From the NCBI GenBank assembly GCA_003221005.1, contig QHTZ01000024.1, positions 1-16,289 of the forward strand: DNA of 16,289 nucleotides. The letters are read 5' to 3'. Source of the DNA: Gemmatimonadota bacterium. GTDB taxonomy: Bacteria; Gemmatimonadota; Gemmatimonadetes; Gemmatimonadales; GWC2-71-9. Made by a program: the position numbers and the translations under genes. Positions within the stretch are counted from its first letter, which is position 1. Each line of letters starts with the position of its first letter. Below, piece by piece: positions 937 to 16,272 of this stretch. The notes below the pieces were generated by a model. The model saw only the letters and a program-made list of their open reading frames with translations. It did not search any database and had not been told where the DNA came from.

Positions 937-1559
937 TCACACCGATGGCCCAACGCATTGCCCCCGCGTCTCGCGAGCTCGCGAAGTTCTACAGCGCCCG
1001 CCACAACTGGCGTAACTCTGGCGAGGAGCGGATGCGCTTCCGCAAGGCCACGGCGCTCGCTCGGGTCAGGCCCGGGAGCGCTGTGCTCGACATCGGGTCG
1101 CGCAACGGCGACCTCCGGCGGTACCTGCCGCCGGACGTGAAGTACCAGGGGCTCGACATCGCCCCCGAATTCGCCGCGCCCGATATTCTCGTGCACGACA
1201 TCTCGCAGGGGCTCCCGTTCGCGGACGTCTCGTTCGACTACGTCTTCATGATCGAGGTGCTGGAGCACACACCGACGGCGTATGCCACGGCGGGGGAGAT
1301 CCACCGCGTGCTGCGGCCCGGGGGCACGTGGATGGTGTCGGTCCCCAACCCCTATCACCTGAAGGAGATCATCTGGAACCTGCTGCGGGTGCCCGACAAG
1401 CAAGGGCACATCTACAGCTGGACCCGCCAGACGATTTCCCGGCTCGGGGAGATGAACGGGTTCCGCCTGGTGGACTGGGGCGGCACTTACTTCTATCCGC
1501 CGATTCCGGCGCCCTGGCTGCTGGCGCGGTCGGTGGCCTACAAGTTCGTCCGCGACTGA
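933..1559 (+). CDS. Class I SAM-dependent methyltransferase
   Basis: Motif I VLDIGSRNG, GLDIA, LPFADVSFDYVFMIEVLEH, EIHRVLRPGG. TTG at 933 has AGGAGG 9 nt upstream; ATG at 945 is an alternative start. Confidence 0.9.
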   Translation: MVTPMAQRIAPASRELAKFYSARHNWRNSGEERMRFRKATALARVRPGSAVLDIGSRNGDLRRYLPPDVKYQGLDIAPEFAAPDILVHDISQGLPFADVSFDYVFMIEVLEHTPTAYATAGEIHRVLRPGGTWMVSVPNPYHLKEIIWNLLRVPDKQGHIYSWTRQTISRLGEMNGFRLVDWGGTYFYPPIPAPWLLARSVAYKFVRD

Positions 1560-1566
1560 GCCCTGC

Positions 1567-2463
1567 GTGACCGGGCGGCGCTGGCTCCGGGCCGCTTCGG
1601 CCCTGGTCACCGTCGTGGTGGTCGCCCTCGTGGCGCGCGCCCTGGCCCGGAACTGGACCGAGTTCCGCACCTTGCACGTGACGCTCGCGGTGCGCCCGCT
1701 TTGGATCGTCGCTTCCGCGCTGCTCGTGCTGCTCACCTACGTAGCTCAAATCCAATCCTGGCGTGCGGTGCTCGCCGGCTGGCGGCAGCGGCTCTCCCTC
1801 GGGGCGGCGGCCCGCACTTGGAGTCTCGCGAACCTGGGCCGTTACGTGCCGGGGAAGGTGTGGAGCGTAGCCGGGCTGGTGGTGCTGGCCGAACGTGCGG
1901 GCGTGGAGCGCGCTCCCGCAGCCGCGTCCGCCTTCGCCTCGCAAGCCCTGGCTGTGGGAACCGGCGCCATCGTGGTCGCCGCTTGCACGCCGCACGCGAC
2001 GTCGCCGCTGCGGCTCGGCGCGGCGGTCCTCGCCGCGGTGGTCACGGTGGGACTCCTCGTCTGGCCGCCTGCCGTCCACCTCATCGGCCGCCTCGTCCAG
2101 GCGGAACGGCCCCTGGAGCCGCTGCGGCCTGCCGCAGTGCTGCAGGCGGTCGCATTTTCCCTGTGCGGTTGGGTGATCTACGGAATTGCGTTCTGGGCGC
2201 TGGCGCGCGGGCTCGTCGCCCCCGCGTCGGGAGCCCTGTCACTTTCGCTCGCCGCCGGCGCGTTCGCGCTGGGCTACATCGTGGGCTGGCTCGCGCTCTT
2301 CGCTCCCGGGGGAGTCGGGGTGCGCGAGCTGGTGTTCGTCGGCCTCCTGGCGCCCGTGCTGGGATCGGGGGGCGCCGTGGCCGTGAGCGTGGCATCTCGT
2401 GTCCTGCTCACCGCCACCGAGGCCGCCGCCGCCGCGCTCACCCTCCCGCTGGGTGACAAGTGA
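1567..2463 (+). CDS. UPF0104 / lysylphosphatidylglycerol-synthase TM domain (flippase-like) membrane protein
   Basis: About 8 hydrophobic segments; family motifs W..LANLGRYVPGKVW and APGGVGVRE...SR. Confidence 0.85.
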   Translation: MTGRRWLRAASALVTVVVVALVARALARNWTEFRTLHVTLAVRPLWIVASALLVLLTYVAQIQSWRAVLAGWRQRLSLGAAARTWSLANLGRYVPGKVWSVAGLVVLAERAGVERAPAAASAFASQALAVGTGAIVVAACTPHATSPLRLGAAVLAAVVTVGLLVWPPAVHLIGRLVQAERPLEPLRPAAVLQAVAFSLCGWVIYGIAFWALARGLVAPASGALSLSLAAGAFALGYIVGWLALFAPGGVGVRELVFVGLLAPVLGSGGAVAVSVASRVLLTATEAAAAALTLPLGDK

Positions 2464-4814
2464 GTCATCCCGAGGCACCGCCCGTGGCCCCGTTCGAGCC
2501 GAAGCGGCCGACGCTCCTCGCCACCGGCCTGTTCGCGCTGTGGCCGGTGCTGCTGTCGCTGCCGATGCTGCAAGGCCGCTGGCTCGCGAGCCCGTGGAGT
2601 GACCAATACACGGCGGGCTACCCGTTTCAGGCGTGGAGCGCCGAGTGGTGGAAGCGGACGGGCGATCTCCCGCTCTGGAACCCCGAGATCTTCGGCGGGC
2701 TCCCGTTTCTCGCGGCGGGGTCGGGAGATGTCTTCTACCCGACCTGGCTGTTGCGGCTGCTGATTCCGACCACGACCGCTGGCAACCTGAGCTTCTTCGT
2801 GCACTACGTCCTCGCCGGCCTCTTCACGTACCTGCTGGTCCGGCGTCTCGGCGTGTCGTGGGGTGGGGCTGTCGTGAGCGGCCTCGCCTACGAGCTGTCG
2901 GGCCTCATCGCCTCTTATCCCTCGCCCGGCCACGACGGCAAGCTGTTCGCCTCCACGATGCTCCCGCTGGCCTGTCTCGCGCTGGTTCTCACGCTGCGCG
3001 AACGACGCTGGACGGGGTACCCGCTGCTCGCCGCGGCCGTGGCGCTGTCCCTGCTCGGCCACTTCCAGCTCGCCTACTACCTCCTGATCGCGGCGGGACT
3101 GTTCGCGCTGTATCTCACGTTCGAGGAGGGCAGCGACGCGGGCGCGAAGGATGGAATGCGGGTGGGCCGCCTGGGACTCGCCCTCGCCGCGGTGCTCCTC
3201 GGCTTCGGCATCGCGGCGATCCAGGTCGTGCCGTTCCTCGAATACATCCCGTTCTCGCCTCGGGCGCAGGGGTACCGCGGCTTCGCCGGCTCGGTCTCCT
3301 TCGCCATCCCGTGGAATCACGTGCTCGAGTTCTTCCTGAAGAACTTCGTCGGCGCGCGCGAGACCTATTGGGGCTCAAACCCGCTCAAGCTGCACTCGGA
3401 GTACCTGGGGCTCCCGGTCATCGCGCTCGCGCTGCTGGGCGCCCGAGTGCGGGAGCGTCGCCGCCTCGTCCTCTGGCTCGGAGGCATCGGGCTGCTCTTC
3501 CTGCTGGTGAGCCTGGGGGGGGCGACGCCCTTCTACAAGCTGTGGTGGGCGCTGATGCCGCTCGTGAAGAAGACCCGCGCCCCGGGGATGGCCTTCTTCA
3601 TCGTAGCGTTCGTCACGGCGGTCTGCGCCGGCGTTGGCGCCGAGCGGGCGCTGTCGAGCGAGGGCCGGCGCGCGGCGCGGCCTGCGCTCGTGGTCGCCGC
3701 GTGCGTCGTGCTCCTCGCCGTCTTCGGCGTCTTCGGCCACGTGGCGCATACGCTGGCCGAGGGCCTCCAGGCGGATGCGGGGCGGGCGACCGGGGCGGCA
3801 GCCGACGCCGATCAAAGCGCGATCCTGTGGGGCGCCCTCGGGAGCGGCATCGCCCTCGCGATCGCCGCTGCGGTGTTCGGGCTCGCGAGTGGGAGGCTGG
3901 CGCCGGGCGTCGGGGCGGTGGCGCTCGCCCTCGGCGTCGGCACCGACCTGTGGCTGAACGCCCGTCCCTTCTGGAGCTACATCGAGCCGTACGGCCGCGA
4001 CCCCGTGATCGAGCGGATTGCCGCCACGCCGCTGCCATTCCGCGTCCTCAATCTCGACGCGTACCCCGGCTCGGCCCTCATGGCGTTCGATGTGCCGGAC
4101 GTGCTCGGCTACCACGGGAACGAGCTGCGCTACTACGACGAGCTGCTCGGAGGCAAGAACGAGTGGCGCAATCTCGGGCACCTGCCGCTGTGGAATCTGC
4201 TCGCGGTCCGCTATGCCATCGTGTCCACGGGACTGCGCGGCGCCGACTCGATCCCCGGCTTCCGCCGCGTGCTCGCCGCGGTGCGCGTGGCGGGGGGAGC
4301 GTCCGCGAACCTGTTCGAGCGGGAGACGCCTGCGCCCTACGCCCGTGTCGTCCCGGGGGCGATCAAGGGCGACTCGAGCATCATCGTTCCGACGCTCATG
4401 GACCCGCGCTTGGATTACTCGCGCGTCGTGCTGTTCACGACCGATCAGCCCGTCGTGCCCGCTCCGCTGAAGGAGCTGCCGCCACCGAGCCCGGCGAAAG
4501 CCACGGTCACGAGCTGGCAACCGGGACGGATGACGGTCGCCCTCGACCCCGCGCCGCCGGCACCGAGCTACCTCCTCATCGCCGAGAACTGGTACCCGGA
4601 CTGGCGGGCCCAAGCCGATGGGCGGCCGGCGCCTGTGGTCCGGGGGGACTACAGCCTGCTGGTGGTGCCCATCGCGGCCGGCACCCGCGCGGTAGAGCTG
4701 TCGTTCCGCTCGAGTGCCTACGAGCGCGGGCGGTTCATCACGCTGCTGTCGCTGCTCGTGCTCGTCGTGAGCGCCGGGGCAGCAGTGGCGGCGGGACGTG
4801 CGCGCCGTGTCTGA
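2460..4814 (+). CDS. YfhO-family polytopic membrane protein (GT-C fold glycosyltransferase)
   Basis: 784 aa, many TM helices; SDQYTAGYPF, LPLWNPEIFGGLPFLA, FYP, and C-terminal LLIAENWYPDWRAQADG...VELSFR plus a final TM. GTGA overlap with the upstream stop. Confidence 0.85.
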   Translation: MSHPEAPPVAPFEPKRPTLLATGLFALWPVLLSLPMLQGRWLASPWSDQYTAGYPFQAWSAEWWKRTGDLPLWNPEIFGGLPFLAAGSGDVFYPTWLLRLLIPTTTAGNLSFFVHYVLAGLFTYLLVRRLGVSWGGAVVSGLAYELSGLIASYPSPGHDGKLFASTMLPLACLALVLTLRERRWTGYPLLAAAVALSLLGHFQLAYYLLIAAGLFALYLTFEEGSDAGAKDGMRVGRLGLALAAVLLGFGIAAIQVVPFLEYIPFSPRAQGYRGFAGSVSFAIPWNHVLEFFLKNFVGARETYWGSNPLKLHSEYLGLPVIALALLGARVRERRRLVLWLGGIGLLFLLVSLGGATPFYKLWWALMPLVKKTRAPGMAFFIVAFVTAVCAGVGAERALSSEGRRAARPALVVAACVVLLAVFGVFGHVAHTLAEGLQADAGRATGAAADADQSAILWGALGSGIALAIAAAVFGLASGRLAPGVGAVALALGVGTDLWLNARPFWSYIEPYGRDPVIERIAATPLPFRVLNLDAYPGSALMAFDVPDVLGYHGNELRYYDELLGGKNEWRNLGHLPLWNLLAVRYAIVSTGLRGADSIPGFRRVLAAVRVAGGASANLFERETPAPYARVVPGAIKGDSSIIVPTLMDPRLDYSRVVLFTTDQPVVPAPLKELPPPSPAKATVTSWQPGRMTVALDPAPPAPSYLLIAENWYPDWRAQADGRPAPVVRGDYSLLVVPIAAGTRAVELSFRSSAYERGRFITLLSLLVLVVSAGAAVAAGRARRV

Positions 4815-5529
4815 GCGCGCGCTCGTCATCATCCCCACCTACAACGAGGCCCCGAACCTCGGGAATCTCGTTCCGCTGGTGTTGTCTCAAGACGAGCGGC
4901 TCGAGGTCCTGGTGGTGGACGACAACTCTCCCGACGGCACCGGTCAGCTGGCAGAAGCGCTGGCGCGTGCCAACCCCCGGGTGCACGTCCTGCATCGCGA
5001 GGGGAAACGGGGACTCGGGACCGCGTATCTCACCGGGTTCCGCTGGGCGATCGAGCGCGGCTACGACTACGTCTTCGAGATGGATGCGGACTTCTCGCAC
5101 GATCCCGTCCACCTCAAGGACTTTCTCAAGGCCGTGGCGGACGCGGACTTAGTGCTTGGCTCCCGGTACCTGGACGGGAAGGTGACGGTCGTCAACTGGC
5201 CTATGGCGCGTCTCCTGTTATCCTACACTGCAAACATCTACGCCCGGCGGCTGACCGGCTTGCGGATGTGGGACCTGACGGGTGGGTTCAAGTGCTTTCG
5301 CAGGCGGGTACTCGAAACGATCGACCTGTCGCAGGTGCGGTCCAACGGCTACGCATTTCAGATCGAGATGAGCGTGCGCGCATGGCGAAAAGGATTCAGG
5401 CTCAAAGAAATCCCGATCGTATTCGTCGATCGAACCGAAGGGGCCAGCAAGATGAACCACGCGATCGTCCGGGAGGCGATTTGGATGGTTCCGCGCCTGC
5501 GGTTGATGGCGTGGTTCGGCCGCATCTGA
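4807..5529 (+). CDS. Polyprenol monophosphomannose synthase-like GT2 (Ppm1/Dpm1 family)
   Basis: IIPTYNEA, VVDDNSPDGTG, GLGTAY, EMDADFSHDP, GSRY, DLTGGFKCFRR, SNGYAFQIEM, FVDRTEGASKM. GTG at 4807 overlaps the YfhO stop. Confidence 0.92.
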   Translation: MSERALVIIPTYNEAPNLGNLVPLVLSQDERLEVLVVDDNSPDGTGQLAEALARANPRVHVLHREGKRGLGTAYLTGFRWAIERGYDYVFEMDADFSHDPVHLKDFLKAVADADLVLGSRYLDGKVTVVNWPMARLLLSYTANIYARRLTGLRMWDLTGGFKCFRRRVLETIDLSQVRSNGYAFQIEMSVRAWRKGFRLKEIPIVFVDRTEGASKMNHAIVREAIWMVPRLRLMAWFGRI

Positions 5530-6356
5530 GCGGCCTGACGGTCTACAAGATGACGGGGTCGGGGAACGACTTCGTCATGGTAGACGGTCGTCACTCGTCG
5601 CCCGAGGACTGGGCGGTGAGCGACATTCACGCCGTATGCGCGCGCGGCACGGGGATCGGGGCGGACGGACTCGTGTTCGTAGGACCGGGGTCGAAGCCCG
5701 GTACCGTGCAGATGACCTACTTCAACAGCGACGGATCCCGCGCGATGTGCGGCAATGCGGCCCTCTGCAGCACTCGCCTGGCCGCGCATCTCGGCTTCGC
5801 CAACGCTCTCGCCATGCGGCTGGAGACGGATGCGGGCGTATATGAGAGCCGCTGCAGCCGCGATGACGGTCGCGCCGAACTGCGGTTCGCCGCGGTCGCG
5901 GCGCCCGCGAGGGTCACCAGCGCCGCGCTCAGCGCCGGTGAGCAGCGTGCGGCGCTGGCCGTGGTGGGCGTACCGCACCTCGTCGTGCTGGTGGATGACG
6001 TCGACCCGCTGGACGTGACGGGCCGCGGCAAGACGTTGCGGCACGATCCGGCTTTGGGGCCCGCGGGAGCCAACGTCAACTTCGTCGCCGCGGGAGCGGG
6101 CTCGGGGGCGCGGCCGGAATGGCGGATGCGCACCTACGAGCGGGGAGTGGAGGGGGAGACGCTAGCCTGCGGCACGGGCGCGATCGCCGTCGCGTGCGCG
6201 CTCGAGCAGTGGGGTCTGGGAACGCTGCCGCTCGCTATTCGGACGCGCAGCGGCAAGACCCTTGATGTCCGGGGGCAAAAGGCCCCTGGAGGTGGCTACG
6301 AGGACGTCTGGCTGGTGGGGGAGGCCCGGCTCGTGTTTAGGGGTGTGGTTATTTAG
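5526..6356 (+). CDS. dapF: Diaminopimelate epimerase
   Basis: KMTGSGNDF, GIGADGL, catalytic MCGNA and ETLACGTGA, GVPH, GANVNF, RTYERGVEGET. Start uncertain (CTG 5526, GTG 5511 or ATG 5550); the ORF-track start at 5268 lies inside the GT2 gene. Confidence 0.93.
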   Translation: MSGLTVYKMTGSGNDFVMVDGRHSSPEDWAVSDIHAVCARGTGIGADGLVFVGPGSKPGTVQMTYFNSDGSRAMCGNAALCSTRLAAHLGFANALAMRLETDAGVYESRCSRDDGRAELRFAAVAAPARVTSAALSAGEQRAALAVVGVPHLVVLVDDVDPLDVTGRGKTLRHDPALGPAGANVNFVAAGAGSGARPEWRMRTYERGVEGETLACGTGAIAVACALEQWGLGTLPLAIRTRSGKTLDVRGQKAPGGGYEDVWLVGEARLVFRGVVI

Positions 6357-6439: not shown

Positions 6440-7126
6440 CTAGGGCACGCCCGCCCCCTTCGTCAGCTCCCCGATGCGCACCTTCGCCTCTGTCACCGTG
6501 GGAGTCGAGTCCGTCCCCGACACGATGCTGCGGTAGTCGCTCAGCGCTGTGGCAGTGTCCCCCGCCGCCAGCCGCGCGCGCCCTGCATCCGAGAGGTATT
6601 GCGCCTTCAGAAAGGCATACTGGGCGCGGCGCGCGGCCTCTTCGTACGCCGCCGCGGCGTCTGCCGGGTGCCCGGCGTTCTCGTACGTCGCACCCAGGAG
6701 ACCGTAGGCCTGGGCCGCGTAGTCGCGCCCGACCGCTGGCGCGACGCGCTTCAGCAGGTCGATCGCCTGCGGACCTTGCCCCTGGTATAGGTGCACCTGC
6801 GCCAACAGCAGATTCGCTTGCGCCGCTGCGCGCGTGCCGGAGAAGTTTTCCACGAGCCGCGACAGTTCGCTCGCCGCCAGTGGATAATTGTGAGACTCGA
6901 AGGCGAGCCGGGCCTGCTCGAGCCGCTCGCTCGCCGCCGCCTCGACCCGGCTCCTCGAGAGGGCGTTCCACCATGCCAAGCCCCCGCCGATCACGATGAC
7001 CGCCGCGATGGCGCCCGCCATCTGACGATGGCCCTTGATCCACTGGATGAGCCACGTCAGCGCCGGCGACTCGCCCGGCGGAGGCGTCCTCGCCGCGCCG
7101 CGCGCGGCTTGCACGGAAGTCGCCAT
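6440..7126 (-). CDS. Membrane-anchored tetratricopeptide repeat protein (YfgM-like)
   Basis: N-terminal TM (AGAIAAVIVIGGGLAWW) followed by TPR-like helices. ATG 7126 has GAGGA 7 nt upstream; the ORF-track start at 7180 falls inside the tRNA. Confidence 0.82.
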   Translation of the reverse strand: MATSVQAARGAARTPPPGESPALTWLIQWIKGHRQMAGAIAAVIVIGGGLAWWNALSRSRVEAAASERLEQARLAFESHNYPLAASELSRLVENFSGTRAAAQANLLLAQVHLYQGQGPQAIDLLKRVAPAVGRDYAAQAYGLLGATYENAGHPADAAAAYEEAARRAQYAFLKAQYLSDAGRARLAAGDTATALSDYRSIVSGTDSTPTVTEAKVRIGELTKGAGVP

Positions 7127-7157
7127 GAATCGGTCCTCGCTGTACCCCCCACCCCAG

Positions 7158-7231
7158 TGCCCCTGGGGTGACTCGAACACCCGGCCAACGGTTTAGGAAA
7201 CCGCTGCTCTATCCACCTGAGCTACAGGGGC
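7158..7231 (-). tRNA. tRNA-Arg(CCT)
   Basis: GCCCCTG/CAGGGGC acceptor stem, GCTC/GAGC D-stem, GCGGT-TTCCTAA-ACCGT anticodon arm, GGGTG-TTCGAGT-CACCC T-arm. CCA is not encoded. Confidence 0.96.
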
Positions 7232-7266: not shown

Positions 7267-7812
7267 TTACGTGTAGTGAAGCAAGGCCTCCAGGCGCTCC
7301 CCGCGCAGCCGCTCCCTCCCCTTCAGAAAATCGAGCTCGATCAGGAAGGTGAACCCGACGACTGCGCTGTCGTGGGCTCGAACCAGCTTCGCAGCCGCCT
7401 CCGCCGTCCCTCCCGTCGCCAGCACGTCGTCCACGATGAGGACTCGGTCGGCCGGGCTCACGGCATCGCGATGCATTTCGAGCGCGTCGGTGCCGTACTC
7501 GAGCGCGTACTCGACCCGTCCCCGCTCCGCCGGGAGCTTCCCCGGTTTGCGAATGGGCACGAGGCCGGCCTCGAGCGCCAGCGCAATCGGCGCACCGAGC
7601 AGGAAGCCGCGCGACTCGATGGAGATCACGCGGGAGACGCCGAATTTCCGGAACGGTGCCGCCATCAACTCGATGGCGCGACGGAACAGCGCGGCGTCGA
7701 GCAGCAGCGGCGTGATGTCCTTGAAGACGACGCCCGGCCTAGGAAAGTTGGGTACGTCCCGGATGCGCCGGTACAACTGCTCGACAGTCGCATCTCCCGT
7801 CATCTCAATCAT
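7267..7812 (-). CDS. apt: Adenine phosphoribosyltransferase
   Basis: IRDVPNFPRPGVVFKDITPLL, IESRGF, IRKPGKLP, YALEYG, PRPP motif VLIVDDVLATGGT. ATGA overlap with the acyP stop. Confidence 0.96.
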   Translation of the reverse strand: MIEMTGDATVEQLYRRIRDVPNFPRPGVVFKDITPLLLDAALFRRAIELMAAPFRKFGVSRVISIESRGFLLGAPIALALEAGLVPIRKPGKLPAERGRVEYALEYGTDALEMHRDAVSPADRVLIVDDVLATGGTAEAAAKLVRAHDSAVVGFTFLIELDFLKGRERLRGERLEALLHYT

Positions 7813-8081
7813 CGAATATCAAAGGACTTAAGTTGGCTGATCTCATGTGGAACCTCTGACTTTTCCACATAGGCGACCCGCGCGTGCGCGGGCCCGCGCC
7901 CGAGCGCCGCTTCGAGCTGTGCCAACGCTGCGAGCGTGCCATCGGCCACGACTTCCACCGCCCCGTCCGGCAGGTTGCTGACCCATCCTCGCAATCCCAA
8001 TCGCTCGGCCTCCCGGAACACGAACCACCGAAACCCGACGCCCTGCACGCTGCCGCGCACGAGGAACCGGGCGGCGGGCAC
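7809..8081 (-). CDS. acyP: Acylphosphatase
   Basis: Last 90 aa of the 7809..8699 ORF: VRGSVQGVGFRWF...GLRGWVSNLPDGAVEV...GP.HARV. GTG start at 8081. Confidence 0.92.
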   Translation of the reverse strand: MPAARFLVRGSVQGVGFRWFVFREAERLGLRGWVSNLPDGAVEVVADGTLAALAQLEAALGRGPAHARVAYVEKSEVPHEISQLKSFDIR

Positions 8082-8092
8082 GGGGCGCCCCG

Positions 8093-8719
8093 CTAGTCGC
8101 CCGACGGCGCCCGGCGCCGCTGCCGCAGCGCGTACACGCCGACGCTGAGCGCCAGGATCGGGAGCACGATGAGCAACGCGCGGCTCACATAGTGCTGCAC
8201 TGCCGCCTGGCGCAAGACCCCCTCGTTCCGGCCCAGCAGGTAGCCGATCGCCACGAGGATGCTGCACCACGCGAACGCGCCGAGTCCCGTGTACCCGATG
8301 AAGCGGCGCAGCGGCATCCGGGCGATTCCCGCCGGGATCGAGATCAGGTGACGGACGACTGGAAGCATGCGCCCTACCAGGACGCTGATCTCGCCGTGCG
8401 CGGCGAAGTAGCGCTCGGTGCGATCGAGCGACTTCTCGGTGACGAGGAAGTATTTCCCGAACCGGCGGACGAACCCGCGGCCGAGCCAGAGCGCCAGGCC
8501 GTAGTTCACGAGCGACCCGACAACACCGCCCAGGACGCCGCTCGCGATCGCGAGGGCGGCATCCATTTCCCCCTTGGCCACCCAGTAGCCGGCGGGCGGC
8601 ATCACGAGCTCCGCAGGGACCGGCAGCACCGAGGATTCCATGGCCATCAACAGGACGATCCCCGGGTAGCCGAGGTCGAGCAGCCCGTTCAGGAGCCACT
8701 GGATGAATTGCTCAAGCAT
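8093..8719 (-). CDS. DedA family membrane protein (UptA/YngC-like)
   Basis: LGYPGIVLLMAMESSVLPVPAELVMPPAG, GSLVNYGL, GRMLPVVRHLISIPAG. ATG 8719 overlaps the pcm stop. Confidence 0.92.
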   Translation of the reverse strand: MLEQFIQWLLNGLLDLGYPGIVLLMAMESSVLPVPAELVMPPAGYWVAKGEMDAALAIASGVLGGVVGSLVNYGLALWLGRGFVRRFGKYFLVTEKSLDRTERYFAAHGEISVLVGRMLPVVRHLISIPAGIARMPLRRFIGYTGLGAFAWCSILVAIGYLLGRNEGVLRQAAVQHYVSRALLIVLPILALSVGVYALRQRRRAPSGD

Positions 8720-9386
8720 CGAAGCCGTGCTCCCCGACGAGCGGGACGAAGCGGGCGTCCCCGAGCGGCGTGCGCCTGAGGTCAGCGCCATCACCCGTGC
8801 GCTCGACGAGCGTCAGGATCTGCGCTCCGCGGTCGCCCAGTGGCATCAGCAGCCGTCCCCCGGGCGCGAGCTGCGCGGCGAGCGGCGGCGGAACCTCCGG
8901 CCCTCCCGCAGCCACGAGGATCGCGTGGTAGGGCGCGTAGTCGCTCCACCCCAGCGTCCCGTCCCCCAGGAGCACGGACGCATTCGTAACACCTGCCTGG
9001 CGCAGCGCCTGTTGAGCCCGGAGGGCGAGGGCGCGGACCCGCTCGACGCTGAACACCTGGCCGGCCAGGGCGCACAGCAGCGCAGTTTGGTACCCGGAGC
9101 CAGTCCCGATCTCCAGCACGCGCTCGCTGCCCCGGAGGCCGAGCGCCTCCAGATAACGGGCCTGCGTGAAGGGTTGCGAGATCGTCTGCCCGTTCCCGAT
9201 CGGGAGGGCGGCGTCGTCGTAGGCGCGCGGGCGCAGCGCCTCGGGAACGAACAGGTGGCGCGGTGTCTCGGCGAACGCCTTGAGTACCGCCAGATCACGG
9301 ATCCCCCGAGCGCGGAGCGCCTCCACCAAGCGTGACCGGTAGCCGGCGAAGGTGTCGCCCCGCCCCGTTAGTCTTCGGGAAACCAC
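8712..9386 (-). CDS. pcm: Protein-L-isoaspartate O-methyltransferase
   Basis: PRHLFVP, AYDDAALPIGNGQTISQP, VLEIGTGSGYQTA, GDGTLGW, RFVPLVG. GTG 9386 gives MVSRR and overlaps the surE end; surE-pcm order is classical. Confidence 0.94.
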   Translation of the reverse strand: MVSRRLTGRGDTFAGYRSRLVEALRARGIRDLAVLKAFAETPRHLFVPEALRPRAYDDAALPIGNGQTISQPFTQARYLEALGLRGSERVLEIGTGSGYQTALLCALAGQVFSVERVRALALRAQQALRQAGVTNASVLLGDGTLGWSDYAPYHAILVAAGGPEVPPPLAAQLAPGGRLLMPLGDRGAQILTLVERTGDGADLRRTPLGDARFVPLVGEHGFDA

Positions 9387-10044
9387 GACTGCACGACCTC
9401 GATCAACTTGTAGTTGGTCATGTCCATGTGCAGCGGAGTGACGGAGATGTACCCGTCGCGGATCGCCCGGAAGTCGGAATCGGCGCCTCCCGACCACGTC
9501 ACGTGGCCGCCCCCGATCCAGTAGATGTCCTTGCCCCACGGATCCTTCATCAAGGCGAGCTCCTCGTGGAACACGCGGCTACCGAGGTGGGTCACCTTGA
9601 TGCCCTTCACGTCTTCCCCGGGGATCGGGGGCAGGTTGATGTTGAGCAACGTCTCCTTCGGGAAGTCGCGGACCTGGGCGAGGCGCTTGAGCAGCCGCTC
9701 GAGCTTGGGGCGGTGCGTCTCCATCAGGTCGAGATCGCTGCCCGCGAACGAGATGGCGATGCTCGGGATGCCGGCCACGAGGCCCTCGAACGCCGCGGCG
9801 ACGGTGCCGGAATAGAGGACGTAGCGAGGAGGACGCAGTCCGTGGGCGTGCCATCCACCTGATACGCGCCGTCGGGGCGCCGGGTGGCGCGCAGCGGGCG
9901 ATGCAGCGTCAAGGAGTGGGAGGTCCCGCTCTGCTCGCGATCAGGTGCGACGACGGTCACCTGTCCCACGGCCGCACACACCTCGCCGAGCACTCCGAGC
10001 CCCCGGGCGAGAATGCCGTCGTCGTTGGAGACGAGAATCTTCAT
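9368..10044 (-). pseudogene. surE: 5'/3'-nucleotidase SurE, disrupted by an internal deletion and frameshift
   Basis: MKILVSNDDG...APDREQSGTSHSLT...GTPTDCVLLA (74 codons, 10044-9823), then 2 nt (AC), then VLYSGTVAAAFEG...GYISVTPL in another frame (9820-9368). The PDxVxSGxNxGxNxG segment is absent. Confidence 0.88.
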
Positions 10045-10409
10045 CGCGGCGACGGCGCGTCCCCCTCGAGAATCGCGAGCACTGACTTCAACTGGGCGCG
10101 TAGGTCTCTGACGGTCTCGAGCGCGAGCGCCCGGCGCGCTTCGGGTTTGAGCTCGCCCGAGCGCCGGTATTGCTCGATCTTCTGGCGCGCGCCTTCGATC
10201 GTGTACTTCTCCGTGTAGAGCAGATGCTTGACGAGCATGATCAGCTCGATCTCGCGCCGCTGGTACACGCGGTTCCCCGAGCGGTTCTTGGCCGGGTTCA
10301 GGAAGCGGAACTGACTCTCCCAATAGCGCAGCACGTGCGGCTTCAGGTCGGTGAGCTGGCAGACCTCCCCAATGGAGAAGAACTCCTGGATAGGATGGGG
10401 CGCGCTCAT
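10041..10409 (-). CDS. MerR family HTH transcriptional regulator
   Basis: FSIGEVCQLTDLKPHVLRYWESQF...KNRSGNRVY...LLYTEKYTIEGAR. ATGA overlaps at both ends. Confidence 0.92.
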   Translation of the reverse strand: MSAPHPIQEFFSIGEVCQLTDLKPHVLRYWESQFRFLNPAKNRSGNRVYQRREIELIMLVKHLLYTEKYTIEGARQKIEQYRRSGELKPEARRALALETVRDLRAQLKSVLAILEGDAPSPR

Positions 10410-11407
10410 CGCCACTGCTCCGCTTTGAGCTCCCGTTCCATCAACGCAGCGACCGCCTGGCGCGGTGACTTCCCATGGAACAGCACCTCGGTCACCTCGT
10501 GCGCGATCGGGAGCTCGACATTGTGGCGCTCGCCGAGCGTCACGGCCGCCCGCGCGGTGTTCACCCCTTCCGCCACCGTGGGACGCTGTGCCAGCGCCTG
10601 CTCCAGCGGCGTGCCGCGGCCCAGCTCGACGCCCAGGGTGTGGTTGCGCGACAGCGGCCCGGTGGCGGTGAGGATCAGATCTCCCATGCCGGCGAGCCCG
10701 GCGAACGTGGCGGGCTCGGCGCCGAGCGCGACCCCGAGGCGAGTGATCTCGGCCAGGCCCCGCGTGATCAACGCCGCGCGGGTGTTGTGGCCCAGCCCGA
10801 GTCCCTCCAGCATCCCGGCGGCCAGGGCGATCACGTTCTTGAGCGCACCCGCGAGCTCCACGCCCACCACGTCGGTATGAGAGTACACCCGAAAGAACGT
10901 CGTCGCGAAGATCTGCTGGACCCGCTGCGCCACGTCGTGCTCCCGCGCGGCCGCCACGACCGCCGTGGGCTGTCGCGCATAAACCTCCTCCGCGAACGAC
11001 GGCCCCGAGAGCACGGCGATCTCGGTGCCACGCGGCAGGATCTCGACGAGCACACACGAGAGGGTGCTGAGCCGCTCCGGCTCGAGGCCCTTGGACACGC
11101 TCACCACGAGCGGCCGCTCGCGCAGCGCCGTCGCCGCTGCGGACATCACCGCGCTCACCGCGTGCGATGGCGCTGCTGAAACGACCACCTCGGCGGCCCG
11201 CACCGCCTCCGTGACGTCGCCCGTCGCCCGCACCTCGGGCGCGAGCGCGGCGCCGGGGAGAAACAGGTGGTTCACATGCTCGCGATTGATGCTCGCCACG
11301 ACCTCGGGCTCGCGCGCCCAGAGCCTGACGCCCGCCCCCTTGCGCGCCAGCAGATCGGCGAGCGTCGTGCCCCATGCCCCTGCCCCGATGACGGCGATCT
11401 GGGTCAT
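10406..11407 (-). CDS. gpsA: NAD(P)H-dependent glycerol-3-phosphate dehydrogenase
   Basis: IAVIGAGAWGT, SKGLE, LSGPSFA, GALKNVIA, GLAGMGDL, SRN, AEG. ATG 11407 overlaps the plsY stop. Confidence 0.96.
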   Translation of the reverse strand: MTQIAVIGAGAWGTTLADLLARKGAGVRLWAREPEVVASINREHVNHLFLPGAALAPEVRATGDVTEAVRAAEVVVSAAPSHAVSAVMSAAATALRERPLVVSVSKGLEPERLSTLSCVLVEILPRGTEIAVLSGPSFAEEVYARQPTAVVAAAREHDVAQRVQQIFATTFFRVYSHTDVVGVELAGALKNVIALAAGMLEGLGLGHNTRAALITRGLAEITRLGVALGAEPATFAGLAGMGDLILTATGPLSRNHTLGVELGRGTPLEQALAQRPTVAEGVNTARAAVTLGERHNVELPIAHEVTEVLFHGKSPRQAVAALMERELKAEQWR

Positions 11408-12021
11408 CTGTCCTCGCCCCCTGGGATGACGCGCGTCCGGAAACGATGCTCCGTCCCTGCGGCCAGCCGCCGGATGTTCGCGCGGTGCGAGAACACGATG
11501 AGCAACGCCAGGGCGACGCTCGCCCACAGGGTGGAGGGAGCGTCCGGCCGGGTGAGGCGCGCCCACAGAGGAAAGAGGGCCGCCGCGACGAGGGAGCTGA
11601 CCGAGACGTATCCCGACAGCCACAGTACCACTCCCCACACAATGGCCGAGATCGCGAGCGCGAGCGGCGCGAGCGCCAGGAACATCCCGCCCGCCGTGGC
11701 AACCCCCTTCCCGCCCCTGAAGCGAACGTAGGGCGAAAACACGTGGCCCGTCACGGCCGCGACCCCCGCCGCCACGGGCAGCCACGGCGGACCCCCGGAC
11801 CAGCGCTCGCACAGCGTCACGGGGAGCGCCCCCTTCGCCACGTCCAACAGGCCAACCGGGATCGCATACCGCCACCCGAGCACGCGGTACACGTTGGTCG
11901 CGCCGAGATTCCGGCTGCCGTGCTGGCGGAGATCGATCCCCCGCCCCAAGCGCCCGGCGATGTAGCTCGTCGGAATCGCGCCGAATAGGTAGGACGCCGC
12001 CAGCCACAGGGCCGCCGTCAC
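11404..12021 (-). CDS. plsY: Glycerol-3-phosphate 1-O-acyltransferase PlsY
   Basis: YLFGAIP, HGSRNLGATNVYR, DVAKG, GHVFS..FRGGKGVAT, HRANIRRL..GTE. GTGA overlap with the der stop. Confidence 0.95.
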   Translation of the reverse strand: MTAALWLAASYLFGAIPTSYIAGRLGRGIDLRQHGSRNLGATNVYRVLGWRYAIPVGLLDVAKGALPVTLCERWSGGPPWLPVAAGVAAVTGHVFSPYVRFRGGKGVATAGGMFLALAPLALAISAIVWGVVLWLSGYVSVSSLVAAALFPLWARLTRPDAPSTLWASVALALLIVFSHRANIRRLAAGTEHRFRTRVIPGGEDR

Positions 12022-13343
12022 GAGCGCACCCGCTTGCGGCGGAACTTGATGTTCACCGGGGCGCCGGTGAATTCCCAGGCCTCGCGGAAGCCGTTCAGCA
12101 GGTACCGCGTATAGGACTCGGGGATCGCCTCCGGGCGGTTCGAGACCACCGCGAAGCGCGGCGGAGCGGTGCCGATCTGCGAGGCGTACAGCAACCGCAC
12201 CGACGCTCCCACCGGCTGAGGGGGCTGCTGGCGCTGCACCAGCTCCTCGAGCACGCGGTTCACCTCGGCGGTGGGCACGCGCTTGTCCCTGGCTTCCGCC
12301 ACCTCGACGATCAGCTCGAGCAACTTCGTCACGCGCTGCCCGGTCTTGGCGGACACGTACAGGAACGGGATGAACGCGAGGAAGGGCGCCTTGTCCTGCA
12401 ACTCCCGCTCGCCGCGCACGGCGGTGTTGGCGTCCTTCTCCTCGATCAAGTCCCACTTGTTCACGGCGACGATCAGCCCCGCGCCGCGCTCCCACGCCTC
12501 GGTCGCGATCTTCAGGTCCTGGGCGTGCATGCCGTCGCTCGCGTCCACCACCAGGATGCACACGTGGGCGCGCTCGATGGCGCGCGCGGTGCGCAGCGTC
12601 GAGTAGAACTCGATGTCGTCCGAGACCTTGGAGCGCTTGCGCAGCCCGGCCGTGTCGATGAACACGATGGTACGCCCATGGTAGACGAGCGGCGTGTCGA
12701 TCGCATCCCGGGTGGTCCCGGGCTCCGCCGCCACCACGAGCCGATCTTGCCCCAGCAGGCGGTTCACGAGGCTCGACTTCCCCACATTGGGACGGCCCAC
12801 GACGGCGACGTGAATGGCGGGCTCCGCGCCCGTGGCGCCCCACGGCGGCAGCAGCTCGACCACGCGATCGAGCAGATCGCCGCTGCTCTTCCCCACCGCG
12901 GCGGACACCGGGAACGGATCGCCCAGGCCGAGCTCGTAAAACGCGAGGTGCCGCGTGTCAACCGGCAGCTCGTCCGCCTTGTTCGCGACGAGCAGAAACG
13001 GCCGCCGGGACTTGCGCACCAGCTCGGCGATCTCGCGATCGGCCGGGTGCACCCCGGCGCTCACGTCCACCACGAACAGCAGCGCGTCGCTCTCGGCGAT
13101 TGCCAGCTCCACCTGCGCCCGCACCGCCTGGCTCAGAGGATCGCTCGCCTGCGGCACGAGGCCCCCCGTGTCCACGAGCCAGAAGCGCTGCCCGTTCCAT
13201 TCCGCGGCGGCGAAATGCCGGTCCCGGGTGACGCCCGGCTCCGCGTCCACGATCGCGTCACGCCGGCCGATGATGCGGTTGAAGAGGGTGGACTTGCCGA
13301 CGTTGGGGCGGCCGATGATGGCGACGGTGGGGGCGCCCTTCAT
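12018..13343 (-). CDS. der: Ribosome biogenesis GTPase Der (EngA)
   Basis: Two G-domains (GRPNVGKS twice, PGVTRD/PGTTRD, DTGG/DTAG, NKAD/NKWD) and a KH-like C-terminus. Own ATG at 13343 preceded by GGGAGGGGAAGGG, but in frame with the upstream DUF512 ORF. Confidence 0.95.
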   Translation of the reverse strand: MKGAPTVAIIGRPNVGKSTLFNRIIGRRDAIVDAEPGVTRDRHFAAAEWNGQRFWLVDTGGLVPQASDPLSQAVRAQVELAIAESDALLFVVDVSAGVHPADREIAELVRKSRRPFLLVANKADELPVDTRHLAFYELGLGDPFPVSAAVGKSSGDLLDRVVELLPPWGATGAEPAIHVAVVGRPNVGKSSLVNRLLGQDRLVVAAEPGTTRDAIDTPLVYHGRTIVFIDTAGLRKRSKVSDDIEFYSTLRTARAIERAHVCILVVDASDGMHAQDLKIATEAWERGAGLIVAVNKWDLIEEKDANTAVRGERELQDKAPFLAFIPFLYVSAKTGQRVTKLLELIVEVAEARDKRVPTAEVNRVLEELVQRQQPPQPVGASVRLLYASQIGTAPPRFAVVSNRPEAIPESYTRYLLNGFREAWEFTGAPVNIKFRRKRVRS

Positions 13344-14549
13344 CCCTTCCCCTCCCACCCTCACGTCGTCGATGAATTGCATATCGTCGTTCACGGCCTC
13401 CGCCGGGAGGAGCGCGAGATCGAGGTCGCCCCGGTCCCGCAGGGCCGCACGAATCCCGGCCCCCGGGAGGAGGCCTGCGGTCGTCACCGCGGGGCCGAAC
13501 AGAGCGTTCTCGAGCACTATGAGCTGGTACGCGGCTCCTGTCAGCTCGGCGAGCCCCGCGAGCACCTGCGGCAGCAACGCCCCCATCGCGGTGCCGGTCA
13601 CGATGCCGATGCGCCGCCCCGCGAGCTGTCCCAAGTCCTCCCGGGCGGCGGCGATGCGCGTCTCCAGGTAGCGAACCGCTCCGACCCCGTTCTCGCGCTG
13701 CTCGAAATCGCCGTACCACTCCGCCGGCGGCAGCAGCTCGCCCGCCTGCAGGTACAAGTCATCCGCTCCGTAGCACCACGGGAAGCCGCGCTCCGCCACG
13801 GCCCGCGCGGCGAAGTCACTCACGGTGGCGAGGGCGCGCCTGCACTCGTCCCCCGTCGGCTGTCGCACCAGGTGATGCTTGCTGAACTCCGTCAGCGCGA
13901 CCGGGACGACGGAGACGGAGAGGATCGGCTCCCCCAGGCTGTAGAGGTCGGTGAGCGTGCTGGTCAACACCGCTCCGTCGTTCACACCTGGGACGAGGAC
14001 CACTTGCGTGTGGAATTTGATCCCCCGGTTCCCGAGCTGTGCGAGCTGCGGCACTACGTCAGGCGCTTCCGGATTGCGCAGCAGCCAGCGGCGCACCGTC
14101 GGATCGGTCGCGTGCACCGAGACGTACAGCGGCGACAGGCGATACTCCACGATCCGCTCCACGTCCCACGGCTTGAGATTCGTCAGGGTGGCGAAGTTGC
14201 CGTAGCGGAACGACAGCCGGTAGTCGTCGTCCCGGATGTAGAGCGGCCGGCGCAGGTCCTCAGGGTTGCCGTCCACGAAGCAGAAGTCGCAGTGATTGGC
14301 GCAACGGCGGATTCGCGGTGGCTCGAGCGTCACGCCCATCGGCCAGCCCTCAGGGCGCAGCACGTCGTACTCGATCTCCTCCCGCGCGGGCGACTTCACG
14401 TGCAACATGAAGTGCTCGTCGGCGGTGAGGAACTCCCAGTCCAGGAAGTCCTCGAGCGGCCTGCTGTTGACGGCCAGGAGCTCGGTCCCGCGAGTGAGTC
14501 CCAGGGCGGCACCGAGAGAGCCCGGCGCCACGGCCTGCACACGGATCAC
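13344..14549 (-). CDS. DUF512 PDZ-containing radical-SAM protein, no stop codon, reads into der
   Basis: N-terminal PDZ-like segment, CANHCDFC (CxxxCxxC), LYIRDDDYRLSFRYGNFATLTN, LSPLYVSVHAT, ENGVG, TTAGLL, FIDD. Confidence 0.88.
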
Positions 14550-14637: not shown

Positions 14638-16272
14638 CTAAGACGGCCTGTAGCGCCAGCCGAGCAGGTCTGTCCCCTTCACGTGGAGCTCGAACTGCTG
14701 GCTTCCGCCTGGCGGGAGGGCCGGGATGTCCGCCGGCAGTGTGGTCGCAACCGCGCCCCCAGGCCCGAGAAAATCGAAGGACAGTTTGAAGGGCTGGGAC
14801 GCTGCCGACCGGAGGTTTGTGGCAACGGCGGTGAGGACGAACCCCGCGCTGTCGGGGGCAAAGCTCGATACCGTGATGTCCACCGGCAGGGTCGAGTCGG
14901 CCCTGGTGACGTACTTCAGGGTGGAGTCGCGGCGACCCTTCAGGTCCCAGGCAGCGGCGACCAGGCGAATGCCGTTCCGGTTCAAGGGGTCGAGGGCGAT
15001 CAGGCGCTGGGCGGTGGGAAGCATGTTCGCCGAGTCCCGCAGCGTGTAGTAGGCCCTGGCGAGATAGAACAGTGCGTCACGGCGATAGGGATTCCTCGCG
15101 AGCCCGAGGGAGAGGGCGCGGGCGCCGGGGCGCACCAGCCCCGTGCCGAGCAGCCGCTCGCCCGCGATGATGAGGTCCTCCGCTTGCAGGTTGTGCGCAT
15201 GGACGAGCACGGAATCGAACACCGTCGTGGCCAGGTCGGGCTCGCCGCTCTGGGCGTAGAGCGTGGCAAGGTTCGTCGCGGCATCCATGTCATCGGGGAA
15301 CGCCGCGAGGAGATCGCGGTGCGCCGCGATCGCGGGCGCCGAGACGGCGCGCACGGCGGCAGCGCCGCTCGCCGCCTGCACGGCGAGCGCGGCCCGCGCG
15401 GCGCGCTCGCGGCCCACGGCGTCGGCTCGAGCGGACGAGTCGCGGCTGAACGCCGCCTGATCGGCAGGAGAGAGCCGCGCCTGCCGCTTGTGACGGGAGA
15501 CCGAGGAGGCGACCATGCGCGCGACGACCGCCGAATCGGCCGCGAGCAGGCGCTCCAGCGAATCCTGACTGGCGCGCGTCTGCTGCGCGCGCTGCACCGC
15601 AGGATCTGTCTGGGCACGACTCAAGTAGATGCGCGCGACGTTGGAGAGCGCGTCGCGGCGGTTGGCGGATAGCGCGGTGTCGCCTGCTGCCGCCGCTGCC
15701 GCGCGGCGGTAGTACACGATGGCGGAGTCGAAGGTCTGGGCCTCCGCGTACAGCCCCGCGAGCGCGAACAGCGGCCGGGCGTTCGAGGGCACCAGGCGGT
15801 AGGCCAGGCGGAACAACGCGGCCGCAGAGTCCTGGTTGCCGGCTTGCCAGGCAGTCGCGGCTCGATTCTGCGTTTCGACGGAGAGCACGCGTCGGTAGGT
15901 CGCGATGTCCGCTGTGCACTGCGGCGCGAGCGCCTCCGCGCGCGCGAAGGCGGTGTCCGCGCCCGCTGCGTCACCCACCGCCTTGAAATAGCGGCCGAGG
16001 TAGTACCAGGCGGCGGGGTTCTTATCCTGCTTGTCGTCCACGATCGAGCGAAACAGCACGTCCTTCGCCTGTGCCAGCATCCGGTCGCGCACGTCCTGCC
16101 GCTCGGCCGCCAGCTTCAGGTCGAGTTGCGCGGAGACGATGCGGAAGTAGCCGGGGGAGATGTCGCAAGGCGGACGGGGCGGAACCCACTGCTGAGCTCC
16201 GAGGAGGCTCGCACCCCCCAGGAGGAGGGCCAGGGCGGACCGAGGGGCGGTCCGTAAGCCAATCGGCGGCAT
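14638..16272 (-). CDS. Secreted TPR-repeat protein with C-terminal FxLYD-like beta domain
   Basis: Signal peptide (RSALALLLGGASLLGA/QQ), TPR motifs (AAWYYLGRY, PLFALAGLY, AATNLATLY, DALFYLARAY) and a C-terminal VATN...LSFDFLGPGG...LPPGGSQQF segment. Confidence 0.78.
   Translation of the reverse strand: MPPIGLRTAPRSALALLLGGASLLGAQQWVPPRPPCDISPGYFRIVSAQLDLKLAAERQDVRDRMLAQAKDVLFRSIVDDKQDKNPAAWYYLGRYFKAVGDAAGADTAFARAEALAPQCTADIATYRRVLSVETQNRAATAWQAGNQDSAAALFRLAYRLVPSNARPLFALAGLYAEAQTFDSAIVYYRRAAAAAAGDTALSANRRDALSNVARIYLSRAQTDPAVQRAQQTRASQDSLERLLAADSAVVARMVASSVSRHKRQARLSPADQAAFSRDSSARADAVGRERAARAALAVQAASGAAAVRAVSAPAIAAHRDLLAAFPDDMDAATNLATLYAQSGEPDLATTVFDSVLVHAHNLQAEDLIIAGERLLGTGLVRPGARALSLGLARNPYRRDALFYLARAYYTLRDSANMLPTAQRLIALDPLNRNGIRLVAAAWDLKGRRDSTLKYVTRADSTLPVDITVSSFAPDSAGFVLTAVATNLRSAASQPFKLSFDFLGPGGAVATTLPADIPALPPGGSQQFELHVKGTDLLGWRYRPS

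Follow-up and report, generated by a model that had tools for sequence, protein, structure and literature searches.

A Bacteroidota-type O-glycosylation sequon is enriched in exported proteins of a Gemmatimonadales bacterium

Bacteroidota possess a general O-glycosylation system that acts on Ser or Thr within a three-residue sequon, D-[ST]-[ALVIMT], with a slight preference for Ser. According to a 2025 review, sequon glycosylation is unique to this phylum, 'about half' of the non-cytoplasmic proteins carry sites, proteins are reported to be glycosylated across species within the phylum, and, more than 15 years on from the first description, no protein had yet been identified as transferase, core flippase or ligase (PMC12871550). 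A July 2026 preprint predicts in silico that YfhO is the missing Bacteroidota O-oligosaccharyltransferase; the prediction draws on HHpred, on essentiality, on presence throughout the phylum and on a count of 12 membrane helices (10.64898/2026.07.27.740950). Here, we examine a 16,289-nucleotide stretch (contig QHTZ01000024.1, analyzed at its full length and called the window) of a Gemmatimonadales metagenome-assembled genome (MAG), which encodes an exported tetratricopeptide repeat (TPR) protein rich in this sequon and a cassette for a UPF0104 membrane protein, a YfhO-family protein and a family 2 glycosyltransferase (GT2). An initial annotation of the window had proposed that the organism runs a related O-glycosylation pathway, possibly initiated by a cassette of a Ppm1-like GT2, a flippase and YfhO. 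We found the sequon enriched in exported proteins across the source genome, and we put at about 0.68 the probability that these proteins are O-glycosylated at D-(S/T)-(A/I/L/V/M/T) by a general sequon-reading system. In such a system, synthesis of a lipid-linked sugar or glycan on the cytoplasmic side would be followed by its flipping across the membrane, and a membrane glycosyltransferase of the GT-C fold would transfer it, in the periplasm, to the sequon Ser or Thr of exported proteins.

The signature described below shares with the Bacteroidota system its three-residue motif, its restriction to non-cytoplasmic proteins, the favored third residues and the Ser preference. It differs in that Gemmatimonadota are a different phylum, a sister within the Fibrobacteres-Chlorobi-Bacteroidetes (FCB) group in which NCBI taxonomy places both, and in that it is known here from sequence statistics. 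The cassette, in turn, resembles systems from other bacteria and from eukaryotes. In streptococci, the YfhO-family enzymes PgtC2 and PgfM1 work with GtrB and PgfS, respectively, and O-glycosylate extracytoplasmic Ser/Thr (PMC12041528); as would be the case for the cassette, a GT2 that makes an undecaprenyl phosphate (Und-P) sugar is combined with a YfhO-family GT-C enzyme, and a single sugar is placed on exported Ser/Thr (PMC12041528; PMC5856776). Unlike here, streptococcal glycosylation is directed to disordered, Ser/Thr-rich regions that have no sequon, in Gram-positive hosts (PMC12041528), whereas a UPF0104 protein is the putative flippase partner in the window. In Bacillus subtilis and Listeria, CsbB/GtcA/YfhO likewise unites a GT2, a flippase and a YfhO GT-C enzyme acting outside the membrane, but its acceptor is teichoic acid and GtcA is a small GtrA-type protein, not a PF03706 protein (PMC5836110, PMC7389260). 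Actinobacterial Ppm1/Pmt and eukaryotic PMT/TMEM260 also use a polyprenyl-phosphate-sugar donor and a GT-C enzyme on exported Ser/Thr (PMC12331936, PMC10214176); unlike the system considered here, no sequon is known for PMTs, and YfhO forms a separate Pfam family, with arabinosyltransferases and ArnT as its best fold matches.

Sequon enrichment in exported proteins

The source genome (G000), from a soil bacterium, is a 2.79-Mb Gemmatimonadales MAG of 141 contigs with a GC content of 69%, in which the window is contig C116. Genes were predicted with a custom codon-usage caller (2,666 genes, coding density 0.92) and export with a custom von Heijne-style signal-peptide and lipobox heuristic that includes a Kyte-Doolittle membrane filter. 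This yielded 321 exported proteins (168 signal peptidase I type, SPI; 91 lipoproteins, SPII; 62 under a relaxed setting), 337 membrane, 981 ambiguous, 938 cytoplasmic and 89 partial proteins. Expected numbers of D-[ST]-[ALVIMT] were computed from each protein's own composition, using the mature part of exported proteins, and summed over the class; we report observed/expected ratios (O/E) with bootstrap 95% confidence intervals (CI). The ratio of a motif to amino-acid composition is also the metric of Fig. 2A in PMC12871550.

Exported proteins contain 685 sequons where 307.6 are expected (O/E 2.23, CI 2.00-2.46), whereas cytoplasmic proteins contain 567 against 574.2 (O/E 0.99, CI 0.90-1.08); the membrane and ambiguous classes lie at 1.21 and 1.33. 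The exported subclasses are concordant (SPI 2.27, SPII 2.16, relaxed 2.19), and the O/E is still 1.90 after removal of the densest 10% of exported proteins. At least one sequon occurs in 220 of the 321 exported proteins against 166.7 expected, that is, in 69%, compared with 'about half' of the non-cytoplasmic proteins given for Bacteroidota (PMC12871550). Control motifs in exported proteins are not enriched (E[ST]x 0.84, N[ST]x 0.89, reversed motif 1.02, D[AG]x 0.96), and D[ST] before a residue outside the sequon set falls below expectation, to 0.73 in exported and 0.77 in cytoplasmic proteins. Selection has favored the sequon in proteins exported across the inner membrane, but not in those that stay in the cytoplasm.

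Because D-x-A is also a helix-cap pattern of TPR proteins, as the initial annotation had cautioned, these proteins were considered separately. Three Pfam searches (TPR_16, TPR_19, TPR_12) located 58 places in G000, corresponding to 56 called genes and two places without a called gene. The ten exported TPR proteins carry 56 sequons against 12.8 expected (O/E 4.37), while the 19 cytoplasmic ones carry 18 against 17.7 (O/E 1.01), so that equal frequency in cytoplasmic TPR proteins is not what we observe. With TPR proteins excluded, the anticipated difference between exported and cytoplasmic proteins persists: 629 sequons against 294.8 in 311 exported proteins (O/E 2.13) and an O/E of 0.99 in 919 cytoplasmic ones.

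The residue specificity of the enrichment was resolved position by position. At position 1 of the motif in exported proteins, Asp alone is enriched (2.17), with the other 19 residues between 0.78 and 1.15 (Asn 0.94); Glu, which the Bacteroidota system does not tolerate, stands lowest at 0.78, a statistical counterpart of that intolerance. After DS, the third position favors Leu (3.37), Thr (2.75), Ile (2.61), Val (2.56), Ala (2.55) and Met (2.00), and after DT it favors Thr (2.40), Leu (1.87) and Val (1.60); DSS (1.31), DSG (1.02), DSP (0.57) and charged third residues (0.3-0.6) score lower, and in the published sequon, too, Ser is weaker in third place, while Gly and Pro are not accepted there. 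In an assumption-free scan of the 3,532 tripeptides whose expected count reached 8 or more, DSL ranks 1, DSA 2, DSV 6, DST 7, DTT 11, DSI 15 and DTL 25, and each of these seven has a cytoplasmic O/E within 0.78-1.08. Judged by these statistics, the residues enriched at position 3 are exactly the published set, and the Asp requirement is matched as a statistical analogue only. The residue preceding the sequon is biased as well: ADS, PDS, PDT and RDS rank 5, 10, 16 and 24 of 3,532, with cytoplasmic O/E values of 0.64-1.29.

For comparison, other genomes were analyzed from samples of 120-400 kb, some of which hold few exported proteins, and related genomes among them are not independent. The Bacteroidota member Nemorincola caseinilytica (280 kb) reached an O/E of 3.09 (116/38) in exported and 1.49 in cytoplasmic proteins. 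Exported proteins gave 0.97 (31/32) in E. coli K-12 (400 kb), 0.85 in S. meliloti pSymB, 0.82 in the M. extorquens megaplasmid, 0.28 in T. thermophilus pTT27 and 1.10 in Azospirillum pAB510a. A pool of six non-FCB records (1.2 Mb), treated with the same code as G000, gave 1.12 in exported (87/77.4, n=87, CI 0.88-1.36) and 1.01 in cytoplasmic proteins. In the ambiguous class of Azospirillum sp. B510 pAB510a (200001-300000), 193 sequons were counted against 73 expected, an excess for which one very large repeat protein, or a few of them, is probably responsible; repeats can inflate a motif count. A MAG titled Agrobacterium sp. (G024; C2:1-380000 and C1:1-20000, 400 kb) was dropped as a proteobacterial negative control: its 42% GC and O/E of 2.50 are not those expected for Agrobacterium, and its taxon label looks wrong. 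The third-position profile of G000 correlates with that of Nemorincola pooled with G024, whose identity is doubtful, at a Pearson coefficient of 0.81, against 0.45 with the controls. Two small FCB samples gave 1.75 against 1.33 in cytoplasmic proteins (G021, a Bacteroidetes MAG without YfhO and with a poor coding density of 0.71) and 1.52 against 1.22 (G023, an Ignavibacteriaceae MAG with YfhO).

The signal recurs in other Gemmatimonadota. Exported proteins of G018, from the same order, have an O/E of 2.82 (65/23.1; cytoplasmic 1.08), and two members of other classes have 2.25 (G027, 85/37.7; cytoplasmic 1.31) and 2.35 (G031, 28/11.9 from only 6 proteins; cytoplasmic 0.75); G101 lies at 1.85 (23/12.4; cytoplasmic 1.04). 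In the cultured Gemmatirosa kalamazoonensis KBS708, the first 300 kb of plasmid 1 gave 2.03 (97/47.7, n=35, CI 1.62-2.47) against 0.69 in cytoplasmic proteins. Together with the weak and negative genomes discussed below, the sequon signal is widespread in Gemmatimonadota, though not universal. A literature search, judged partly from titles and the beginnings of abstracts, found no account of a glycosylation motif or of O-glycosylation in Gemmatimonadota. Because exported proteins carry about twice the number of sequons expected by chance, a sugar-tagging system probably works in this phylum, and what is new here is probably the sequon signature, in a second phylum, of a system so far described only in Bacteroidota.

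The exported TPR protein of the window

The observation that started this analysis concerns the 544-residue protein at the end of the window, which matches TPR_14 (36.9 bits, cut-off 23.5), TPR_2 (32.4, cut-off 27) and TPR_19 (30, cut-off 25). In its AlphaFold2 model (predicted local distance difference test, pLDDT, 84.7), residues 43-459 contain 19 helices, and strands follow at 465-543; from the matches above cut-off and the modeled helical-repeat fold, we assign it as a TPR repeat protein. Its N-terminus (MPPIGLRTAPRSALALLLGGASLLGA, followed by QQ) resembles a signal peptide. The initial annotation had counted by hand about 39 Asp, 12 of them before Ser or Thr where roughly 5 were expected; the exact figures are 39, 12 and 4.6. 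The 12 are DTA106, DSA148, DSA182, DTA198, DSL237, DSA246, DSS278, DSV353, DSA413, DST449, DST459 and DSA474, of which 11 are full sequons, against 2.1 expected. When the protein was shuffled 20,000 times, 12 D-[ST] were reached in a fraction of 0.0008 and 11 sequons in none. The counts given for other proteins of the window hold as well: DTA208 and DST224 are present in the YfgM-like protein, in its extracytoplasmic C-terminal part (2 sequons against 0.4 expected; hydrophobic anchor at about 55-72), DSI and DSS in the C-terminal domain of YfhO, and none of the 5 Asp of GpsA precedes Ser or Thr. Two of the four D-T in the Der half of the 843-residue open reading frame (ORF) are G3 motifs (DTGG460, DTAG632).

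The sites are conserved. Six full-length orthologs of the TPR protein (42-53% identity) have 8-11 sequons each, where about 1.9 are expected, and in the alignment sites 106, 148, 182, 237 and 449 are sequons in 7/7 sequences, with 198 and 246 in 6/7. Substitutions stay within the motif: Ser and Thr are exchanged at 106 and 413, and site 246, with Ala, Val, Thr or Ile in third place, reads DSA/DSV/DST/DST/dss/DSI/DSI. A paralog in the same genome (G000:C40:40940-42418; 43-44% identity in two blocks) has 8 sequons against 1.4 expected, and paralogs adjoin the ortholog in G058, G062, G032, G026 and G064. In the AlphaFold2 model, five sequons lie at helix N-termini (148, 182, 198, 413, 449), four in mid-helix (106, 237, 246, 353) and two in the loop or beta part (459, 474). 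A helix-cap preference may shape the placement of sites in this protein, but such a preference does not produce the sequon excess, since TPR proteins of the cytoplasm show none. The TPR protein is a heavily marked example of a class that extends through the whole proteome.

The UPF0104-YfhO-GT2 cassette and other candidate enzymes

The cassette genes are tightly packed: the UPF0104 stop overlaps the longest YfhO reading frame, and GT2 overlaps the YfhO stop by 17 bases. YfhO orthologs (43-78% identity) were found at 77 loci, nearly all in records of Gemmatimonadetes, Gemmatimonadales or Gemmatimonadota, the exceptions being one record titled Chloroflexi and one uncultured bacterium. UPF0104 adjoins YfhO in 65/65 Gemmatimonadales loci with enough upstream flank, a GT2 of 67-87% identity lies within 6 kb in 74/77 loci, and DapF then follows in 67/69. 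The methyltransferase at the head of the cassette is present in only 29/61 loci with enough flank, and the divergent GT4 gene in 54/56. G000 has a single YfhO match by genome search, and a homolog was found in 121/121 Gemmatimonadota genomes of at least 90% completeness (119/119 without the two unpublished genomes G112 and G073). The order is UPF0104-YfhO-GT2 in the order of the window, and YfhO-UPF0104-GT2 in other orders and classes (G074:C1:2199653-2203684; G027:C1:116534-120544). Two Nemorincola YfhO loci had no GT2 or UPF0104 neighbor. In the Ignavibacteriaceae MAG (G023:C17:60001-80000, locus 9856-16786), genes for a GT2, a methyltransferase, YfhO, a Wzx-type flippase (Polysacc_synt) and a GT4 form a string that resembles the cassette in composition, with a different flippase family. 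In G001, of the same genus as the window and 83% complete, a YfhO homolog lies in five pieces in different frames at G001:C3:305564-307871 (37-47% identity), which is either a decayed gene or poor assembly.

The Pfam YfhO match covers residues 113-421 of the 784-residue form, beside a weak PMT_2 match (E 0.0018); the sole NCBIfam match is to PgfM1, over the C-terminal 59 residues and far below cut-off (E 3.5e-8). An AlphaFold2 model (pLDDT 85.8, predicted template-modeling score 0.88) was compared with the PDB using Foldseek, and all 17 matches at E<=0.001 were GT-C enzymes (AftD, AftA, ArnT, Emb, PglB, STT3, AglB), with the protein mannosyltransferase Pmt4 at rank 34. A profile of the YfhO alignment gave nothing meaningful against PDB sequences (best E 0.55), and an ESM Atlas search returned only YfhO clusters (Gemmatimonadota, Verrucomicrobiota, Chloroflexota) and no functional lead. 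The model thus predicts YfhO to be a GT-C-fold transferase of polyprenyl-phosphate sugars that acts outside the membrane; the modeled fold does not distinguish the acceptor, with transferases to lipids, polysaccharides and proteins all among its matches. The first outer loop contains Asp40, which is invariant in 24/24 orthologs and in all 18 aligned rows, including 12 more distant homologs. His150 is kept in the clade of the window and in the G027, G031, G077, G101, Nemorincola and Ignavibacteria homologs, and it is replaced by Gln in all three genomes of genus g57 (G074, G097, G115) and by Asn in G080. The GT2 is a candidate polyprenyl-phosphate-sugar synthase by its best NCBIfam matches, AglJ, PpgS, dolichyl-phosphate hexose transferase, PgfS and ArnC, all far below cut-off. 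No small flippase of the GtrA/GtcA type occurs in the cassette; the neighboring PF03706 protein is the putative flippase.

Two other GT-C families were surveyed in 14 genomes. A TMEM260-like protein (PF11028) is present in 14/14, including G074, with one in G000; among 14 control genomes, only Bacteroides thetaiotaomicron had a match. PMT_2 had no match in G074, G097, G115 and G077 and a match in the other 10/14, with three in G000; as the enzyme shared with Bacteroidota it was rejected, there being no match in the B. thetaiotaomicron control genome. G018 was rejected as a genome in which to see the signal without YfhO. Neither a family nor a protein query found YfhO there, at 100% completeness and an O/E of 2.82, but a missing contig is the likelier explanation, because the orthologous GT2 (best match 35% identity, against 67-87% elsewhere) and DapF are missing too.

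Elsewhere in the window, two side observations concern single genes. SurE lies in two frames, with profile positions 1-81 in ORF 9724-10323 and 118-187 in ORF 9368-9778, which is a frameshift or an assembly error near 9780-9810. The 843-residue ORF, which has no internal stop, looks like a DUF512-Der fusion from its predicted domains: PDZ, radical-SAM-like and DUF512 domains (4-398) are followed by a complete double-GTPase Der/EngA with a KH-like domain (408-837).

Features of the window, in window coordinates; TPR sequons are numbered by the Asp residue in the exported TPR protein
Feature	Position	Strand	Details
GT4 glycosyltransferase, cut by contig end, divergent from cassette	1-858	-	Pfam Glyco_transf_4 77.4 bits, Glycos_transf_1 44.9
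S-adenosylmethionine (SAM)-dependent methyltransferase, head of cassette	945-1559	+	Pfam Methyltransf_23 54.8 bits
UPF0104/LPG_synthase_TM membrane protein, candidate flippase of lipid-linked sugar	1567-2463	+	PF03706 49.9 bits vs 33.4
YfhO-family GT-C glycosyltransferase (predicted)	2484-4814	+	776 aa (784 aa from GTG 2460); Pfam YfhO (PF09586) 53.2 bits vs 28.5
GT2 glycosyltransferase	4798-5529	+	243 aa; Pfam Glycos_transf_2 116.4 bits
DapF	5511-6356	+	
YfgM-like membrane-anchored TPR_21 protein	6440-7180	-	Pfam TPR_21 34 bits vs 25.5
Phosphoribosyltransferase	7267-7812	-	
Acylphosphatase	7809-8081	-	
DedA/VTT	8093-8719	-	
PCMT	8712-9326	-	
Split SurE	about 9368-10040	-	
MerR	10041-10415	-	
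GpsA	10406-11407	-	
PlsY	11404-12021	-	
Apparent DUF512-Der fusion ORF	12018-14549	-	843 aa
Exported TPR protein	14638-16272	-	544 aa; N-terminus resembling a signal peptide; long helices connect two TPR blocks; beta-sandwich at the C-terminus
TPR sequon 106	15949-15957	-	
TPR sequon 148	15823-15831	-	
TPR sequon 182	15721-15729	-	
TPR sequon 198	15673-15681	-	
TPR sequon 237	15556-15564	-	
TPR sequon 246	15529-15537	-	
TPR sequon 353	15208-15216	-	
TPR sequon 413	15028-15036	-	
TPR sequon 449	14920-14928	-	
TPR sequon 459	14890-14898	-	
TPR sequon 474	14845-14853	-	

Competing explanations and implications

Several points weigh against general sequon glycosylation in this bacterium. All of the support comes from sequence statistics, and it builds on heuristic gene calls and export classes that leave 981 of 2,666 proteins ambiguous; the signal peptide of the TPR protein itself passed the relaxed setting only, and the siting of its sequons on modeled helices suggests that the pattern in this one protein could be partly structural. 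In the survey of bacteria made for the 2025 review, the motif was enriched 'mainly in Bacteroidota', and the accessible text of the review does not name Gemmatimonadota (PMC12871550). The high-GC Ralstonia megaplasmid (400 kb) gave 1.51 in exported (43/28) and 1.26 in cytoplasmic proteins. Within the phylum, the signal is weak in G080 (1.62; cytoplasmic 1.20) and in G077 (1.30; cytoplasmic 0.94), the latter carrying low weight, as its first gene calling gave 108 genes in 200 kb and a second one, seeded with the G000 codon model, still reached a coding density of only 0.77. Enrichment was not found in the 50 exported proteins of G074 over 360 kb (0.70, 64/91.8, CI 0.53-0.96; cytoplasmic 0.90). 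That the gene calls or the export classes, both heuristic and with mis-called frames in the first G077 run, created the enrichment artificially is nevertheless highly improbable: the same code gives 0.97 for E. coli, 1.12 for the pooled controls and 3.09 for the Bacteroidota sample, the three independent exported subclasses agree within 2.16 to 2.27, and misclassification would dilute the contrast, not create it. We also consider it improbable, to a lesser degree, that the sequon is enriched for a reason other than glycosylation, such as a periplasmic fold preference or a site for another modification, a chaperone or a protease. The five of 11 sites at helix N-termini and the depletion of D[ST] before non-sequon residues in both classes (0.73, 0.77), which indicates some context bias, would fit such a reason, but the 1.12 of the six non-FCB records, the 1.01 of cytoplasmic TPR proteins and the coincidence of the residues at positions 1 and 3 with the experimentally defined sequon (for the third-position profile, Pearson 0.81 against 0.45) speak against it. 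For a related O-glycosylation pathway as initially proposed, the enrichment and the residue specificity were borne out; glycosylation of the motif and the identity of the enzyme are what we infer.

If the sequon is glycosylated, the cassette may or may not be the machine. In the sharper version of this reading, GT2 would load a sugar onto Und-P, UPF0104 would flip the product and YfhO would transfer the sugar to Ser/Thr after Asp. This agrees with the confident GT-C fold and invariant Asp40, with three genes that overlap or abut and keep their adjacency (65/65 for UPF0104, 74/77 for GT2), with the phylum-wide occurrence of YfhO, with protein O-glycosylation by YfhO-family enzymes in streptococci (PMC12041528) and with the preprint prediction for Bacteroidota (10.64898/2026.07.27.740950). 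The change of His150 to Gln in 3/3 g57 genomes, one of which is the unenriched G074, also fits. Yet the cassette as machine is rather unlikely: G074 has YfhO, UPF0104 and GT2 side by side at an O/E of 0.70; P. gingivalis, which has no YfhO according to the preprint (10.64898/2026.07.27.740950), carries 257 O-glycosites at the sequon in 145 proteins (PMC8729774); the fold search is blind to a protein as opposed to a lipid or polysaccharide acceptor; the two Nemorincola loci lack GT2 and UPF0104 neighbors; and the TMEM260-like family, in 14/14 genomes and with B. thetaiotaomicron as its sole control match, is a rival GT-C candidate. For the initially proposed role as initiator the cassette is a candidate only: its conservation across the phylum and the YfhO precedents speak for that role, and the intact cassette of G074 and the P. 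gingivalis sites speak against it. A somewhat better, if still less than even, chance falls to glycosylation of the sequon by another enzyme, for example a TMEM260-like or PMT_2-type GT-C, with the cassette decorating a non-protein envelope polymer, as CsbB/GtcA/YfhO does on lipoteichoic acid in Bacillus and Listeria (PMC5836110). G074 and P. gingivalis point in this direction, as do the one TMEM260-like and three PMT_2 proteins of G000 and the lack of a PMT_2 match in G074, G097, G115 and G077, set against matches in the other 10/14. On the other side, PMT_2, without a match in B. thetaiotaomicron, cannot be the shared enzyme, the TMEM260-like protein is also present in G074 and so discriminates no better than YfhO, and no polymer target is known in Gemmatimonadota. 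Diderm Gemmatimonadota are not known to make teichoic acid.

Returning to general sequon glycosylation, a second phylum with the same proteome signature would place the system's origin further back in the history of the FCB group. A more specific proposal, which we regard as doubtful, is that sequon-reading O-glycosylation did not arise within Bacteroidota but is an older FCB trait, shared with Gemmatimonadota, with YfhO as the transferase, together with a soluble GT2 and the UPF0104 flippase, and that the loss of the sequon signal in g57 along with the His150-to-Gln change marks a change of the enzyme. The GT-C candidates that the two phyla share come down to a short list, YfhO and the TMEM260-like protein, and phylogenetic profiling can draw on the natural contrast within the phylum between G074, which lacks the signal, and G000, G018, G027 and G031, which have it. 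A further prediction of the shared signature is that, in a phylum widespread in soil, glycoproteins would make up most of the periplasmic proteins.

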